This document shows positions 1-9,254 of a DNA stretch of 9,254 nucleotides, piece after piece. Position numbers and translations under genes: made by a program. Origin of the DNA: a virus (lineage: Duplodnaviria; Heunggongvirae; Uroviricota; Caudoviricetes). The number at the start of each line of letters is the position of its first letter. Positions within the stretch are counted from its first letter, which is position 1. The stretch lies in IMG/VR virus record IMGVR_UViG_2585427737_000005; one strand, given 5' to 3'. Under the pieces are notes generated by a model. It was not told the origin of the DNA, made no database searches, and was given only the letters and a program-made list of their open reading frames with translations.

Positions 1-1360
1 CCCGTAAGGCGTTCTCTGCGATGTTGTTGTCGATTTCCACCCAGCCATTACTGCAGTACACGTTCAGTGCATCCCACTGTTTCAGCAGGTATGCGAACGC
101 TTTTGCCGTATCTGAGTGACGCGACAGTGTTTTCATCTGTTGCTGTATCCAGTCATACAGTGACTGCATCAGTGGCGCGGCTCTGGCTTTTCTTGCCGCC
201 AGACGCTGTTCTGCTGAACAGCCCCGGACCTCTGCCTCGATGGCATACAGTTCACCGATACGCTGCAGGGCTTCCGTGGTGATGTAGGTGGGCGCTCTTG
301 CATGCACATCGTGGATTTTTCTCCGGGCATGAGCCATACACGCGGCTTCCGTTATTCTGCCGGATTCGTATAACGCCCGGTAACCACCGTAAGCATCGGC
401 CTGAAGCACACCGCTGTAACCGGCCAGGTGATTTTGTGGATGGATACCTTTCCGGTCCGGACTGTACGCGAACCAGACCGCCGGGGGCATCTGTGAACCG
501 GCGTTACGGTCATCACGGACGTAGACCCACAGCCGGGCTGTCCGGGTTTTACCGCTGCCCGGCTCCTGGACCGGGACGGGGATATCATCAGCATGGACTT
601 TACCGGGCATCAGCACATACTGGCGCAGGACGTCATACAGCGGCTCCAGCAGTTCAGCAACAGCACCTGTCCAGCGCCCCAGTGTGGCACGGCTCAGCTC
701 CACTCCCTGACGACGGTATATTTCTGACTGGCGGTATAACGGCAGATGGTCTGCATATTTCCCGGTGACAACATGGGCCAGAAGCCCCGCTCCGGCATAA
801 CTGCGTGCAATGGGTTTTGAAGGTACTGGTGCCTGCACGATATGGTCGCACCGGCAACAGGCCTGTTTCGGACGTTGTGTTTCGATAACCTTAAAGGCGC
901 TGCTGATAAGCTCCAGTTGCTCTGACACATCACATCCCAGAGAACTGAGTTCACCACCACAGGCAGGACAGCATTCCTCTTCCGGCCGGATAACCCGGGT
1001 TTCACGGGGAAGTGAGGCCGGTAACGGTTTACGGGCTGAAGACTGGCGCAGGGCGGATGGCAGTACCGGGTCATATTGCTCACCCAGCGTTTCCGCCATT
1101 TCTTCCTGAAGTGCGCTGATTCGCTCCTGTGCTTCCTGTATCTGCCGTTCGGTTTTTGCACGAAGTTTTTCTGAGCTTTTACCGAACTGCATACGTTGCA
1201 GTTTCGCAACCAGCGCCTTCAGCCGGTTGATTTCGGAAGCATAAGCCGCCACCCGCTGTGAGAGCAGGCGGTTGTATTCAGCCATCTGGCGGATGGTGTC
1301 CTGTTGCGTCTGCAACAGTGCCCGCAGGCGGGCGTTCTCATGAGCAAGTGAGGTGTCCAT
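1..1360 (-). CDS. tnpC: IS66-family transposase TnpC (orf3), C-terminus truncated by window edge
   Basis: Manual translation of the minus strand from ATG at 1360..1358 gives an uninterrupted 453-codon frame to position 1 ([33 protein letters not shown] ... [14 protein letters not shown]). It contains the CxxC pairs and DDE-region motifs typical of IS66 TnpC as I recall them. GAGG Shine-Dalgarno sits 7 nt upstream. The ORF track misses it because no stop codon falls inside the window; the listed 694..1209(-) ORF is a different frame. Confidence 0.9.
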
Positions 1361-1379
1361 ATCCTCACTTTACAACGGG

Positions 1380-1727
1380 TTATATGCGGATTCCAGCGCG
1401 TTCCGTTCGTTTCGGGTGCTTCCAGTTGATACCTTCAAGAAGCATGGATAACTGAGCCGGAGTAAGGTGCACCTTGCCGTCACGGGTGACTGGCCAGACG
1501 AAGCGGCCCCGCTCCAGGCGTTTGGTGAAGAGGCACAGTCCGTCACTGTCAGCCCACAACACTTTTATCTGGTCACCCCGGCGTCCGCGGAAGATGAACA
1601 GGTGTCCGGAGAACGGGTCATCCTTCAGGACGTTCTGAACTTTTGATGCCAGGCCGTTAAAGCCATTTCGCATATCGGTGATACCTGCAACCAGCCAGAT
1701 ACGCGAACCTGCAGGGAGAGATATCAT
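1380..1727 (-). CDS. tnpB: IS66-family accessory protein TnpB (orf2)
   Basis: 115-aa ORF (MISLPAGSRIWLVAGITDMRNGFNGLASKVQ...) matching the conserved IS66 Orf2 family by recalled similarity. Its ATG overlaps the tnpA stop in an ATGA arrangement. Confidence 0.9.
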   Translation of the reverse strand: MISLPAGSRIWLVAGITDMRNGFNGLASKVQNVLKDDPFSGHLFIFRGRRGDQIKVLWADSDGLCLFTKRLERGRFVWPVTRDGKVHLTPAQLSMLLEGINWKHPKRTERAGIRI

Positions 1728-2374
1728 CAGTGGCTGCTCCCTTTTATTTCGCGGATAAGTGTCTGTAATAACGCCGGCGTCAGTTTACCTTTAAGCCTGA
1801 GAGTTCCGGCCGGCAGAACCAGCTCACAACACAGACTGTCGGGCGGTGTATTTATCTGCTCTGGTTCCTGTGCGGGGGCCGGGATTTTATTATCCGGCTC
1901 CGGCGTTAACGTCACGGGAAGCAGTGCCGGCATATTTTTTCCGGAAGGCAGCAGGCCACCTTTCCGGTATTGATGGCGCCAGTTGAAGAGCAGGTTATCG
2001 TTGATTCCGTTTTCCCGGGCGATCTGCGCCACACAGGCTCCGGGCTGCAGTGACTGCTCCACTAAGGCGATTTTAAACTCATAAGGGAAGTTGGGCCGCC
2101 GGGGACGTTTTTTTACCACGGGGGCTTCGGATATAACGGTGCTTTCAGGACGTACGACTGGTACCGTGGAAAATTGTCCGTAAAGGCAGGCATCAAGTTC
2201 CTGCTCCGACATGCCTGCGGGCAAAGGCCACGAAAGGCCAGCTCTCCGAAAGCGCACGAACATACTACAAACAGTTGATTTTGGTACACCCAGGCGACGC
2301 CCGGCCACAACCCGGGGTAAATGTTCTTCAAAGTGAAGACGTAAAGCTTCAGTGATCCAGGTCCGGTGTTTCAT
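1727..2374 (-). CDS. tnpA: IS66-family accessory protein TnpA (orf1)
   Basis: ORF immediately upstream of and overlapping tnpB. Start taken as ATG 2374 (MKHRTWITEALRLHFEEHL...); an alternative in-frame ATG exists at 2404. Neither has a strong Shine-Dalgarno, so the start is uncertain. Confidence 0.75.
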   Translation of the reverse strand: MKHRTWITEALRLHFEEHLPRVVAGRRLGVPKSTVCSMFVRFRRAGLSWPLPAGMSEQELDACLYGQFSTVPVVRPESTVISEAPVVKKRPRRPNFPYEFKIALVEQSLQPGACVAQIARENGINDNLLFNWRHQYRKGGLLPSGKNMPALLPVTLTPEPDNKIPAPAQEPEQINTPPDSLCCELVLPAGTLRLKGKLTPALLQTLIREIKGSSH

Positions 2375-2440
2375 ACGATAGTGTCCATTAAAAATGATGG
2401 ACATTATTTTTGTAGAGCCGGAGGAAACAGACCAGACGGT

Positions 2441-2959
2441 TTAAATGAGCCGGTTACGTGTCACCTGCAAGATGTATTCATGCTCGACAGCCAGGACACG
2501 CTTCTCTTTCTTCCGTTCGTTCATTAACCGACTGCCGATCGTACCTTTCAGCTTTGAGCGTGTTTCTTTGATGGCGTAGCGGTGCTGCATTTCTTCGCCA
2601 ATTGCCATGCGGCGGCTCAGTTGTTCTGCCATCCAGTTGAATGCTGCGATATAGCTCTCCTTGATTGCCGCAGCAGCTTTCCCGGTGAACCCCATCACAA
2701 CCATGATCCAGCCATCTTTCGTCAGGCTGTACATCGGGCGAACCTTGCCCTGCTCATCGATATAATCAGCCGACGCAAAATTGCGTTGGCTAAACTCACG
2801 CGAGCAATCAGCCTTAACCTGCTCGATTTTCCTGAGAACATCACCGTGTCGCTTGCCGAAGTACTTGGCAATTTTTCTGGATGTGGTAACGACCTCTCCG
2901 TTTTTGGCTTGCACCATTTCTCGGAAGTCGAAGGCTGGAATAACTGAATGATTATTCAT
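2441..2959 (-). CDS. Rha-family phage regulatory protein (antirepressor-like), probably C-terminally truncated by the IS66 insertion
   Basis: N-terminal region (VVTTSRKIAKYFGKRHGDVLRKIEQ ... RPMYSLTKDGWIMVVMGFTGKAAAAIKESYIAAFNWM) matches the Phage_pRha domain pattern as I recall it. ATG at 2959 is preceded by AAAGGTAAAGA. The last 5 codons and the stop (2441-2457) fall inside the proposed IS terminus. Confidence 0.7.
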   Translation of the reverse strand: MNNHSVIPAFDFREMVQAKNGEVVTTSRKIAKYFGKRHGDVLRKIEQVKADCSREFSQRNFASADYIDEQGKVRPMYSLTKDGWIMVVMGFTGKAAAAIKESYIAAFNWMAEQLSRRMAIGEEMQHRYAIKETRSKLKGTIGSRLMNERKKEKRVLAVEHEYILQVTRNRLI

Positions 2960-3100
2960 AGCGTCTTTACCTTTTAGAAAGTGAGCCTGTCTCACAGAAA
3001 AGCCGCCCGAGAGAGGTCGCCACCTATAACGGCATTTCTCAGGCTCGCTTACTGAAAGGCTCTCGTTAATATGCGCGTGAGATGCGCTGTGAAATTCAGA

Positions 3101-3127
3101 TATAAAAAGCCCCGCGAATGCGAGGCT
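3101..3127 (-). terminator. Rho-independent terminator candidate downstream of the lysis cassette (minus strand)
   Basis: Minus-strand RNA reads 5'-AGCCUCGC-AUUC-GCGGGGCU followed by UUUUAUA: an 8-bp stem with one G-U pair, 4-nt loop and U tract, about 175 nt after the Rz stop. Confidence 0.55.
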
Positions 3128-3301
3128 AAATCCTGGTATTTGTAATGAACTGGCTCTTATCTCAACGCAGCCCCTTACTGCGCGCCAGATGCTCAATATC
3201 AAGCATCAGCAATGAGATGTTTAATCTGGATTTACTCCAGAAGTGATCACCACCCTGTCTACAGAGCCAGATGTGAAGGATGATGAGTAAAATTATCGCT
3301 A

Positions 3302-3769
3302 TCATCGAAGGCATTGCGTCCTAATGTATTCCTGAAGCGTTCTCAGTGCTGTTTGGTCGCGGATAATTCCGTCCCGGATATCGAGAACGTTTCGTCCAGC
3401 AACTGGAGAGAGTTCGACGGTGGCATCATTGCCCATGCCGGAGGCGCTGGAGGTTTCGGCAGAGGATGGCACAGGGCATTTTCCTTTGACGAGCACCCTG
3501 CCACCATTATCAAGCTTCCGCAGAAGAGCATCATTTTCAGCTTTCGCATCAGCTAACTCCTTCGTGTATTTTGCATCGAGCGCAGCAACATCACGCTGAC
3601 GCATCTGCATGTCAGTAATTGCCGCGTTCGCCAGCTTCAGTTCTCTGACATTTTTGTCGCGCTGGGCTTTGTAGGTAATGGCGTTATCACGGTAATGATT
3701 AACAGCCCATGACAGGCAGACGATGATGCAGATAACCAGAGCGGAGATAATCGCGGTTACTCTGTTCAT
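3302..3769 (-). CDS. rzpD: Rz-type i-spanin (lysis protein, inner-membrane spanin subunit)
   Basis: ATG at 3769 overlaps the endolysin stop (ATGA). N-terminal TM segment ([23 protein letters not shown]) followed by a charged coiled-coil-like region, as in lambda/21 Rz. The track ORF begins at an upstream GTG (3781) that lacks a Shine-Dalgarno. Confidence 0.85.
3343..3549 (-). CDS. rzoD: Rz1-type o-spanin lipoprotein, embedded in the +1 frame of Rz
   Basis: 68-aa ORF lying wholly inside Rz. Lipobox IMVAGC places the lipidated Cys at residue 19, followed by a proline-rich stretch ([11 protein letters not shown]). Strong Shine-Dalgarno (AAGGAG) 9-14 nt upstream of ATG 3549. Confidence 0.8.
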
Positions 3770-4263
3770 TGCTGACCCCACAAACAGATTTCACGCTCAA
3801 TCTCACGACGAGTCATGAGACCTTTCCATTGCTTACCGCCAGCATATGTCCAGCGACGTAGCTGATCACATGCGCCTTTGATATCGCCCTGGTTTATTTT
3901 GCGAAGAAGCGTCGATGTTCTGAAATTGCCAGCACCCACGTTGTAAACGAATGAGTAAAGAGCGCCGCGCATTGTTTCCGGTATATCGACTTTGATGTAC
4001 GGGTTAATTTGTCTGGCGACCGTGGCAAGGTCTTTATTCAGGAGGGCTTTGCATTCTGCTTTGGTATACGTTTTACCGAGCATGATGTCTTTTCCTGTAT
4101 GCCCGTGACATACAGTCCATACACCAACAATATCTTTGTATGGTATGTAGCTGACACCTTCCAGACCATCGTTACCACTTGGGCCAGTAATTAACACTGA
4201 TGCTATAGCAATTGCTCCGCCACCAATAGCAGCAGCAACGGCTTTTCGTAATGATGGAGGCAT
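3766..4263 (-). CDS. rrrD: SAR endolysin (phage-21 R-type lysozyme, T4-lysozyme fold)
   Basis: 165-aa ORF with an N-terminal Gly/Ala-rich signal-anchor-release segment ([20 protein letters not shown]) and the lysozyme core ([12 protein letters not shown]...). Start overlaps the holin stop (TAATG); stop overlaps the Rz start. Confidence 0.9.
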
Positions 4264-4478
4264 TATTCACCTCTCGCAGCCTTGCGCTTATCTTCTTTAA
4301 TCTTGAAATAAAGGTTTGTCAGGTACGTCAGCAGGCCAAATACCAGGCTACCCAGCACACCTATTGCTGCCCACTGTGAGGGCGTGACTTTATCGAGCAG
4401 CTGTAAAAACCAGTAACCGGCACTACCTGCTGAGGTGCCATAGGCGACACCCGTTGTTAACTTATCCATGGATTTCAT
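4263..4478 (-). CDS. essD: Pinholin (phage-21 S-type class II holin) with dual start motif
   Basis: 71-aa [29 protein letters not shown]... with two TM segments. Met1 (4478) and Met4 (4469) give the antiholin/holin dual start. GAGGTG Shine-Dalgarno upstream. The track ORF is extended from an upstream alternative start. Confidence 0.9.
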
Positions 4479-4604
4479 AACCCCACCTCGCAGACAAAGC
4501 GGGTGTAAATTGAGGGAATACAACGTATCGCAAAAAAGCAGAAACGTAACAGACTCGGAGTCAGTGAATAACTCAGGTATTGGGTTATCAGCTAATATCG
4601 AGAC

Positions 4605-4639
4605 TCAAAAAATGGAAAAACCCGCTCGACGGCGGGTTT
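4605..4639 (-). terminator. Rho-independent terminator candidate about 130 nt upstream of the holin (minus strand); weaker on plus strand
   Basis: Stem AAACCCGC / GCGGGTTT (4618-4625 and 4632-4639) with 6-nt loop. On the minus strand it is followed by UUUUUCCAUUUUUU. Confidence 0.55.
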
Positions 4640-5065
4640 AAGCTGTGTGACGAAGTAACCACTCTTAACAGCATAACCAATTTTTTACGTACGTAAACCA
4701 CTAAATGATATTTGCGAGAATGCTACCGAGTATTGAAAACACCACTACAAATACATAAGCAAATCTCAACAAATAACCAACAAATAATTTCCAGCGTTAT
4801 TTTTAGCTGGTTTAAATTGAATCTTCAAATTATAGAGCACTTATAAATAACAGCCATTAATATAAATTGGCTAATAGATTTATTTTTATTCAGCCAAGAG
4901 CCATGAATAGGATTCGATAGAAAAAGTTCAGATAAAAATAGAGATCTACTTCACAAATCAAATGAGAAACCAAAACTTACATCTTGAAATAATCACATTG
5001 ATTAGATGAATATTTATCGCGCAGTGACATCATTTTTTAATAATAGTTCAAAAAAAGGGCTCACG

Positions 5066-6148
5066 ATGAAAAAATTAACAGTGGCAATTTCTGCTGTAGC
5101 TGCATCAGTACTGATGGCGATGTCTGCTCAGGCAGCTGAAATTTATAATAAAGACAGTAACAAGCTGGATCTGTACGGGAAAGTTAATGCTAAGCACTAC
5201 TTCTCCTCTAATGATGCAGATGATGGTGATACTACTTATGCCCGTCTTGGCTTCAAAGGTGAAACCCAAATCAACGATCAACTGACTGGTTTCGGTCAGT
5301 GGGAATATGAATTCAAAGGCAACCGCGCTGAATCTCAAGGTTCCTCCAAAGATAAAACCCGTCTTGCCTTCGCTGGCCTGAAATTCGGTGACTACGGCTC
5401 CATCGATTATGGCCGTAACTACGGTGTAGCATACGATATTGGTGCATGGACCGACGTTCTGCCAGAATTCGGTGGCGATACCTGGACCCAAACAGATGTA
5501 TTCATGACTGGTCGCACCACAGGTGTTGCAACTTATCGTAACAATGACTTCTTTGGTCTGGTTGATGGTCTGAACTTTGCTGCTCAGTATCAGGGTAAAA
5601 ATGACCGCACTGACGTAACTGAAGCTAATGGTGATGGTTTCGGTTTCTCCACTACTTATGAGTATGAAGGATTCGGTGTAGGTGCAACCTATGCTAAATC
5701 TGACCGCACTAATAATCAGGTTATCTACGGTAACAACAGCCTGAATGCATCTGGTCAAAATGCTGAAGTATGGGCAGCTGGTCTGAAATATGATGCGAAC
5801 AACATCTATCTGGCTACCACCTATTCTGAAACCCAGAACATGACTGTTTTTGGTAATAACCATATTGCCAACAAAGCACAAAACTTCGAAGCTGTTGCAC
5901 AATATCAGTTCGACTTCGGCCTGCGTCCATCCGTTGCTTACCTGCATTCTAAAGGAAAAGACTTGGGTGTTTGGGGTGATCAGGACCTGGTTGAATATGT
6001 TGATGTAGGTGCAACCTATTACTTCAACAAAAATATGTCCACTTTTGTTGACTACAAAATCAACCTGATTGATAAGAGCGATTTCACGAAAGCATCTGGC
6101 GTTGCTACCGATGATATCGTTGCTGTAGGTATGGTTTACCAGTTCTAA
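5066..6148 (+). CDS. nmpC: Outer membrane porin NmpC/Lc (OmpC/OmpF/PhoE family), apparently intact
   Basis: 360-aa ORF from ATG 5066 ([23 protein letters not shown], signal peptide, then [17 protein letters not shown]...) ending in the porin C-terminal motif VYQF. AAAGGG Shine-Dalgarno 7 nt upstream. The track ORF (from 5006) includes a 20-codon upstream extension that is unlikely to be translated. Confidence 0.95.
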
Positions 6149-6310
6149 TTTGATTACTAAAAGATATGTTGTGGGAGGCTTTGCCTCCCCAACATATAAG
6201 TGGCTCCCTCAAGCCACTTCCTTTAGAAGCACAACCTTGCTTCTAACTATACAAACCTTCTGTTATATATTACCCTTTATTTTTGGGGGCGTTTCAACGC
6301 CCCATTTTTA
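6149..6310 (+). ncRNA. ipeX: Structured nmpC 3' UTR, IpeX-like regulatory RNA region
   Basis: Four stem-loops within about 160 nt after the nmpC stop (6164-6197, 6198-6219, 6222-6247, 6285-6303), the last followed by a T tract. IpeX was described as arising from the untranslated region between the nmpC stop and its terminator in DLP12 and PA-2. Identity rests on position and structure, not on sequence comparison. Confidence 0.4.
6285..6310 (+). terminator. Rho-independent terminator candidate for nmpC / 3' UTR transcript
   Basis: GGGGGCG-TTTCAA-CGCCCC stem-loop followed by ATTTTTA on the plus strand, lying between the convergent nmpC and quuD genes. Confidence 0.6.
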
Positions 6311-6336
6311 ATAACTTTTAGTAAATAATTGGCGTA

Positions 6337-6720
6337 TTAATTAGAGTTATTAACAACGATATCCATCTCTAACCGGATATCTAATGCCATTAACATCCCT
6401 TCAATTATGCCCTCAGCCTTCTGTAACCTTTTCCCGATATAACCATCAGAGCAGCAATGCTTACCTGCCAGTGACATGAATGTCATACCGACTACATAAT
6501 AATCTACTAATAAATCGTGCAAATCGCTGTTGTTCTTTTTCAGACGGGCCATGCACCCGCAAATGATCATCGCGTCATCGTCACAACATTGCGGGCGAGA
6601 TTTTACTTTTGAAGTAATTAATCCCTTAAAACCGGCGGCAATGGACGACCAGGTCACATCTTCATGATTATTAGCCGCCCACGCTCCCCAACGCTCAAGA
6701 ACCATCTGAATATCACGCAT
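6337..6720 (-). CDS. quuD: Late-gene antiterminator Q (QuuD-type, small Cys-rich Q)
   Basis: 127-aa ORF from ATG 6720 ([22 protein letters not shown]...) with GGAG Shine-Dalgarno 8 nt upstream. Cys clusters ([20 protein letters not shown]) suggest Zn binding. Product and position after rusA/ylcG match the DLP12 gene order from memory. Confidence 0.8.
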
Positions 6721-6805
6721 CAACTTACTCCACAAAAATCAGACCAGAACGCCAATTACAAGCAAAAATCAACAAAACAGTATTAGTTGATTGTTATCTC
6801 TGACT

Positions 6806-6946
6806 TCATACTCCTGCTCCTGTCAGGGTTTTGGCGTAATTCTTCAGTATTCGGTAATCGGTCAAAACAGAACCGGGGAAACGATATAAGCGCAGACGCC
6901 CCCAGCGGTGGCGAAGACGTCCTGCCATATAAAACTCAAACATCAT
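6806..6946 (-). CDS. ylcG: Small nin-region protein (YlcG-like, 46 aa)
   Basis: [49 protein letters not shown] found by manual translation. Its ATG overlaps the rusA stop (ATGA). It is below the ORF-track size cut-off. Identity rests on size and position recalled from DLP12. Confidence 0.5.
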
Positions 6947-7305
6947 TCATTCCCCATTTCGGTGATGGTCAGTTCCAGCCTCCCACCTTTGGTAACAGGC
7001 ATCTTCACAACGCGGTAATCAACGACCTGAGCATCATCCAGCCAGAAACCTGCTTTAGTGAGTGCGTCAAAAGCGGCTTTTTGCAGATTATCCAGGTCAC
7101 GGCGACGGCGATCCGGCATGTGGCACTCAATGCGGATTTTCACAGGCATAGCCAGGCCGATATCCAGCATTGCGTTTTTAATGATTCGGGCGACGTTATC
7201 GCGGTATGCCTGCCCCTCTGCGCTGACGTGCGTGCGCCCGCGATTATGGCGGTAATAGCGATTATTGCTCGGAGGCCAGGGTAATGTGATGCTGTAGGTA
7301 TTCAC
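6943..7305 (-). CDS. rusA: Holliday junction resolvase RusA
   Basis: 120-aa [41 protein letters not shown]... beginning at a GTG (7305..7303) that overlaps the ybcO stop (GTGA). Confidence 0.9.
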
Positions 7306-8473: not shown

Positions 8474-9254
8474 GTAAGCGTCAACGGAGCACCGTATTGA
8501 CGCTTATTTATTGGTGAGTACTACGTTCCATGGCAGGAGTTCGTCAACACGGTTGGAGGGCCATTCCGGCAGTACGCTCAGAATATGGCGCAGATACGCT
8601 TCCGGATCGATACCGTTCAGTCGGCAGGTGCCGATCAGCCCGTACAGCAGTGCTCCACGCTCGCCGCCGTGATCGCTACCGAAGAACACGTAATTTTTCT
8701 TTCCGAGACAGACTGCACGAAGCGCTCTTTCCGCTGTGTTATTGTCCACCTCCGCCAGACCGTCATCACTGTAATAACAGAGGGCGTCCCACTGATTCAG
8801 TACATAGCTGAACGCTTCGCCCAGTCTGGATTTTTTCGACAGCGTGCCATTCTTCCCACCATCCATTCATGCAGCGACGTCAGTAACGCTTTGCTTCGCT
8901 GCTGCCTGGCTGCAAGACGCTCTGACTCTGGTAATCCCCGTATTTCATTCTCGATGGCGTACAGTTCACTGATTCGCTTCAGGGCTTCTTCTGCCGTCGC
9001 ACTTTTGCTGCTGATGTATACATCGTGGATTTTTCTCCGGGCATGAGCCCAGCACGCAACTTCTGTCAGCGCACTACCTTCACGTTCTGCACTGAACAGC
9101 CTGTCATAACCTGTGAACGCATCCGCCTGCAGGATACCCCGGAAGGGGCGGAGGTGTTGCTCCGGGTGTTTCCCCTGCCGGTTCGATGAGTACGCGAACC
9201 AGACCGCCGGAGGAGATGACGAACCCGCATTGCGATCATCCCGGACATACGTCC
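8474..9254 (-). mobile_element. Second IS66-family insertion sequence, partial; tnpC-side terminus in window, remainder beyond window end
   Basis: Plus strand at 8474 reads GTAAGCGTCAACGG... (5'-GTAA terminus) immediately followed by the tnpC 3' end. Its protein is related to but clearly different from element 1 TnpC, so this is a distinct family member. Confidence 0.8.
8504..9254 (-). pseudogene. tnpC: IS66-family transposase tnpC, frameshifted (apparent 1-nt deletion near 8860/8861); N-terminal part beyond window
   Basis: The frame entering from the window end ([34 protein letters not shown] ... LTSLHEWM) stops shortly after 8861. The C-terminal 120 aa (DGGKNGTLSKKSRLGEAFSYVLNQWDAL ... LPWNVVLTNK) continue in the -1 frame from 8866. 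Aligned to element 1 TnpC ([20 protein letters not shown] versus EW-I/M-GGKNGTLSKKSRLGEAF), one nucleotide is missing in TGGAT-GGTGGG. Confidence 0.75.

Follow-up and report, generated by a model that had tools for sequence, protein, structure and literature searches.

Results

The window analyzed here, 9254 bp in length, is an entire draft contig, JORD01000133.1 (GCA_000713025.1), taken in reverse complement. It carries DNA of a DLP12-like lambdoid prophage and, on the minus strand, a gene of the Rha family. The reading frame of this gene (2441..2959) runs from an ATG at 2959..2957 to a TAA at 2443..2441 and comprises 172 codons and the stop, exactly as the initial annotation had described it. 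Its product is WP_032215362.1, which RefSeq files as an ordinary 'Rha family transcriptional regulator' despite the fact that the last five residues are encoded by an insertion element. Residues 25-111 match the Phage_pRha domain (PF09669) with 99.2 bits against a cut-off of 29.9. The profile TIGR02681 scores 113.8 bits against a cut-off of 45.95 on the intact allele of the gene, and the matched residues 14-116 are identical in the window allele. Directly 5' of the rha ATG the same peptide, VRQAHFLKGKDA, is encoded in the window (2960-3000) and in phage phi80 (L009, 1465-1500). The phi80 record annotates the stretch encoding VRQAHFLKGKDA inside its rha CDS, with a GTG start; all aligned homologues begin at MNN. 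The conservation of this upstream peptide may point to a 5' leader or to an alternative start.

Downstream of rha, and co-directional with it, lie three consecutive IS66 genes whose products all score above the curated cut-offs of their Pfam and NCBIfam models. The first, tnpA (1727..2404, minus strand), encodes an IS66 accessory protein of 225 aa with an HTH (NF038385, 294 bits against a cut-off of 150), and its ATG follows the rha stop after 37 nt. The second, tnpB (1380..1727, minus strand), encodes an IS66 Orf2-like protein of 115 aa (NF033819, 129 bits against 50). The third, tnpC (1..1360, minus strand), codes for the DDE transposase (DDE_Tnp_IS66; NF033517, 401 bits against 180), and its first 453 codons are open to the contig end. 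The element that holds these genes is ISCro1 of the IS66 family, a name taken from the RefSeq annotation of the matching copies. The window includes 2457 of its about 2699 bp (1..2457, minus strand), and the left end lies beyond the contig. The terminal inverted repeat on the tnpA-proximal side occupies 2436..2457 and has the minus-strand sequence GTAACCGGCTCATTTAAACCGT. At 2382-2403 the minus strand has a 7-bp hairpin, UGUCCAU-N8-AUGGACA, which overlaps the annotated tnpA start codon (ATG, 2404..2402). Folding of window positions 2470..2360 gave a z-score of only -2.07. Such a hairpin could mask translation initiation of tnpA on transcripts that read through from rha.

The end of the element had been proposed to lie at 2457, and three independent comparisons confirm the boundary between 2457 and 2458. 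Escherichia coli genomes with an uninterrupted rha are 100% identical to the window starting at 2458 and match nothing before it (29 of 29 among the matches listed). The annotated ISCro1 copies of strains APEC17 and E7476 are 99.88% and 99.80% identical to the window over 1..2457, respectively, and both stop exactly at 2457, not downstream of the rha stop; a third copy, in strain 602354, is 100% identical over 2394 bp. The inverted repeat GTAACCGGCTCATTTAAACCGT also pairs with the opposite end of ISCro1, GTAAGCGACTCGTCAGAACCGT in the 2699-bp APEC17 copy, with which it agrees at 16 of 22 positions, and both ends begin with GTAA. The intact site has a T before the adjoining octamer GTGTCACC where the window has a C, and hence position 2457 belongs to the insertion element.

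Across this boundary the rha frame continues as a hybrid. The prophage-derived part (2458..2959, minus strand) contributes codons 1-167 plus one base, the first, of codon 168, and is identical to the intact 174-aa allele. The other two bases of this codon, codons 169-172 (N-R-L-I) and the TAA lie in the part derived from the IS (2441..2457, minus strand). Codon 168 (CGT, 2458..2456) straddles the junction, and the minus strand reads ...CAG GTG ACA C/GT AAC CGG CTC ATT TAA, with the slash at the boundary. The view that an IS66-family element supplies the end of the frame, stop codon included, was right: the last 14 coding bases and the TAA are ISCro1 terminal inverted repeat. The insertion site lies 20 nt before the native rha stop. 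Alignment to the intact allele shows residues 1-167 unchanged, and the native tail QPELLIN of seven amino acids exchanged for RNRLI with five. The intact protein ends in ...EHEYILQVTQPELLIN and the window protein in ...EHEYILQVTRNRLI, with ...VTRNRLI at its very C-terminus, and full-length homologues do not share these end residues.

The initial annotation had considered 172 aa short for a Rha protein and had suspected that a C-terminal domain following Phage_pRha was lost. Neither expectation is borne out. The intact allele, WP_001059339.1 from strain HS30-1, has 174 aa. Among 5426 complete E. coli genomes at least 141 carry it together with its 3' flank, and the prophage DNA around it is 98-100% identical to the window. 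Phages carry the intact protein as well, in phiv205-1 and PhiR70_1 with 100%, in 2B8 with 99.4% and in HK639 with 94% identity. The Rha protein of phi80 (AFV29199.1), after whose gene the family is named, is 73.4% identical over 173 aa, and counted from the equivalent MNN start it has 172 aa and ends in ...VTQPELLIG. Most of the 120 related cluster representatives have between 171 and 183 aa. Since the subfamily, including the phi80 prototype, is equally long, we rejected a missing C-terminal domain; only the tail of seven amino acids is exchanged. Longer Rha-like proteins do exist as other subfamilies (the PHROG 518 profile has 268 positions), and a length comparison across the broad Pfam family is therefore misleading. 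The right comparator is the orthologous subfamily with about 172-174 aa. Of the proposed insertional truncation, the insertion of an IS element into the 3' end of rha stands; with seven residues replaced by five, the net loss is two amino acids. The change is a tail swap, and the term truncation overstates it.

AlphaFold2 models were compared for the chimeric protein (mean pLDDT 86.5) and for an intact 174-aa homologue with 99% identity (P0003, mean pLDDT 84.4). Both show a winged-helix-like domain (residues 17-88), a long helix of 74 residues (94-167) that is kinked at residue 142 in one of the two models, and a tail modelled as a coil with low confidence. In these models the last helix ends precisely at the junction, and the chimeric protein is predicted to keep the entire folded portion. 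A Foldseek search against the PDB gave no significant match, the best hit being weakly winged-helix or PadR-like (E = 0.076), and a profile search of PDB sequences with Rha returned no match.

The tail that is exchanged belongs to the conserved parts of the family. At least 114 of the 120 homologue clusters, which range from E. coli to Vibrio and Providencia, have a motif [QNSC]-P-x-[LMI]-[LIVF] close to the C-terminus. Including the preceding threonine the conserved tail reads T-[QNSC]-P-x-[LMI]-[LIVF], a pattern that the window allele lacks. Pro169 is invariant in an alignment of 43 sequences. The swap destroys Gln168 and Pro169, while Leu171 and a hydrophobic residue at position 172 (Ile) are kept, comparable to the natural variants QPRLI and QPQLI. 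We attribute the retention of these two residues to chance.

The chimeric protein has a narrow distribution. WP_032215362.1 (KEM15666.1 and siblings, from E. coli 6-319-05_S1_C1) is encoded on only six contigs, which come from two drafts at NCBI and two Logan read-set assemblies, and the junction of rha and ISCro1 at 2457/2458 occurs in no complete E. coli genome of the collection that we searched. The window is a short draft contig with IS66-family repeats at both ends, a situation in which an assembler may join unrelated sequences at a repeat and produce a chimeric contig. That the junction is such an artefact is nevertheless next to negligible as an explanation. Two NCBI assemblies and two Logan assemblies, the latter independent and from different runs, agree on the junction and on the 172-aa product. 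The Logan contigs continue for 29-30 nt into the IS, and the breakpoint falls on the very base at which ISCro1 truly ends.

The remainder of the window contains several further features. A second IS66-family element, ISEc47-like, occupies 8474-9254; it is 99.9% identical to annotated copies, has its end, GTAAGCGTCAACGG, at 8474, and disrupts a hypothetical gene of the DLP12-like prophage. The transposase frame of this element is split into two ORFs (9254..8797 and 8866..8504) by a difference of 1 nt in length from intact copies. A sister assembly (L003) departs from the window at 8792, near this frameshift. As the source of the rha junction, recombination of the ISEc47-like element with the ISCro1 part of the window was considered and rejected, as the two share only a blastn match of about 300 nt with 68% identity. 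Within the Rz-like lysis gene (3302-3781) an out-of-frame ORF at 3343-3549 on the minus strand has a lipoprotein-like signal with a cysteine, the usual Rz/Rz1 (spanin) layout. A porin gene (5066-6148, plus strand) with two porin Pfam domains separates the Q antiterminator gene from the lysis cassette and lies on the opposite strand. Related records annotate it as ompC, and its location is presumably the nmpC position of prophage DLP12.

Discussion

The replacement of a gene's last codons by an IS is a routine event, and both partners, ISCro1 and the phi80-type rha gene, were already annotated. We consider it very probable that ISCro1 entered a phi80-type rha by transposition, 20 nt ahead of its native stop, and that this was a recent, lineage-restricted event without adaptive design. 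In the sequence of steps that we propose, ISCro1 with its genes tnpA, tnpB and tnpC would have transposed into rha, just downstream of the lysis cassette, in the DLP12-like lambdoid prophage of an E. coli 6-319-05-type strain. It would have settled with its tnpA-proximal inverted repeat adjoining rha and its genes co-directional with it. The rha frame would then read across the junction into the inverted repeat and stop after 14 nt. Transcription from rha or the late promoter that reads through into tnpA is also possible.

A simple insertion is inferred from the one junction that is visible. The other ISCro1 copies with two visible ends, in APEC17 and E7476, are flanked by clean 8-bp duplications, and for this reason the octamer GTGTCACC next to the IS (2458..2465) is the expected copy of an 8-bp target-site duplication, with the second copy expected beyond the contig end. 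If the insertion was simple, the second junction is predicted to read TCAATTAATCAGCAGTTCAGGCT-GTGTCACC-GTAAGCGACTCG on the plus strand, or, with a longer flank, TCAATTAATCAGCAGTTCAGGCT GTGTCACC GTAAGCGACTCGTCAGAACCG. Exact-pattern scans for the first junction in genome contigs and for the second in genome and metagenome contigs gave zero matches, but the collections do not include the source strain and the result is hence uninformative. The recovered contigs that encode the chimeric protein (the window, L003, L005 and L006) all end inside or at the IS without a second junction, and the opposite IS end is absent from all of them. This leaves some room for the view that the visible junction was made by an IS-mediated rearrangement, be it a deletion beside the element, an inversion or homologous recombination of two ISCro1 copies, and that the DNA beyond the element is not the rest of rha. 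Related strains do have multiple copies of ISCro1, a query of IS end and rha matching up to 18 places in one genome, and the near-identical prophage of strain 602354 has a 100%-identical ISCro1 elsewhere in rha, in opposite orientation and abutting another IS66 element. We regard such a rearrangement as unlikely, however. The junction sits at the exact IS terminus beside unaltered rha, as it does in a primary insertion, and the clean duplications at both sibling copies speak against it as well.

A different question is whether the new tail has any function. The initial annotation had raised the possibility of a neomorphic regulator, and one could argue that the swap takes out Gln168 and the invariant Pro169 from a conserved terminal motif and at the same time leaves Leu171 and a hydrophobic residue 172 in register with QPRLI and QPQLI. 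That the tail-swapped Rha is a selected, functionally altered regulator nevertheless appears very improbable to us. The allele is limited to one small group of isolates. Each of the three frames that enter the ISCro1 end meets a stop within 54 nt, the rha frame after 14 nt, and a short foreign tail is thus automatic for any insertion in this orientation. Furthermore, ISCro1 has also hit rha destructively at around codon 130 in strain 602354, and non-coding DNA 222 bp downstream of the gene in APEC17. The repeated insertions fit neutral or mutagenic hits by an active IS that lands in dispensable prophage DNA and do not suggest selection for a new regulator. Because the tail that was destroyed bears a conserved motif, the most likely effect of the swap lies between neutral and a partial loss of function, and a hypomorphic Rha product is possible.

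The sole biological lead of this locus is in our view the conserved motif of the C-terminal tail, which fell victim to the insertion by chance. In IHF-deficient hosts Rha blocks the growth and DNA synthesis of lambdoid phages, according to a secondary summary of the phi80 work of Mozola and Friedman (PMC4936722), and the annotation of phi80 rha carries the note 'DNA synthesis inhibition in IHF- hosts'. We speculate that the native T-Q-P-x-L-L tail docks to a host partner, which could be the beta sliding clamp, and that the IS-swapped allele would be a natural tail-less mutant without this activity. The clamp comes into question as a partner because of the phi80 annotation and because of the likeness of the tail to QPLLIP in MutL, but as it stands the idea is a long shot and quite unlikely to be correct in full. 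Clamp-binding motifs follow the consensus QL[D/S]LF, are usually located in flexible terminal regions and include 482-QPLLIP-487 of E. coli MutL (PMC6511837). The native Rha tail QPELLI likewise has the order Q-x-x-L-hydrophobic, in a terminus that is modelled as flexible, although this is a resemblance only, and the NPDMV-type tails of about a fifth of the Rha homologues fit poorly. The window allele no longer has such a motif in any case.

The element itself can be compared with three other ISCro1 insertions, of which those in APEC17 and E7476 are independent events. In APEC17 (L002, 5760-8458) it follows an intact rha at a distance of 222 bp, at the equivalent of window position 2244, and is flanked by an 8-bp duplication, TTATTCCC. 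In E7476 (L007) it sits between quuD and ylcG, with an 8-bp duplication at window positions 6755-6762. The third copy, in the ETEC strain 602354 (CP025847.1; L008, 4391/4392), is inserted inside rha at the window equivalent of 2568/2569, which is 111 bp upstream of the window site and in opposite orientation. The insertion in 602354 yields a chimeric Rha of 166 aa (P0053), in a prophage that is 99.95% identical to the window over 2569..6959, and this ISCro1 copy is truncated by 63 bp from the tnpA end, where another IS66-family element abuts. As in the window, all three have the gene order tnpA-tnpB-tnpC and a repeat starting with GTAA, and all three are located in late regions of DLP12-like or lambdoid prophages. 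IS genes and late genes point the same way in the window, APEC17 and E7476; the copy in 602354 has the opposite orientation.

Among the closest known systems for the target gene is phi80. The window and phi80 share the gene order holin-lysozyme-Rz/Rz1-terminator-rha. In the interval between the lysis cassette and rha the window has a terminator-like hairpin (3108..3127, minus strand), and the phi80 record annotates a putative terminator at the corresponding place, between Rz and rha. By this gene order and its sequence the window rha is best described as a syntenic orthologue of the prototype phi80 rha. The phi80 protein and the intact E. coli allele have the ...VTQPELLI tail in common, which in the window allele has given way to the end of ISCro1.
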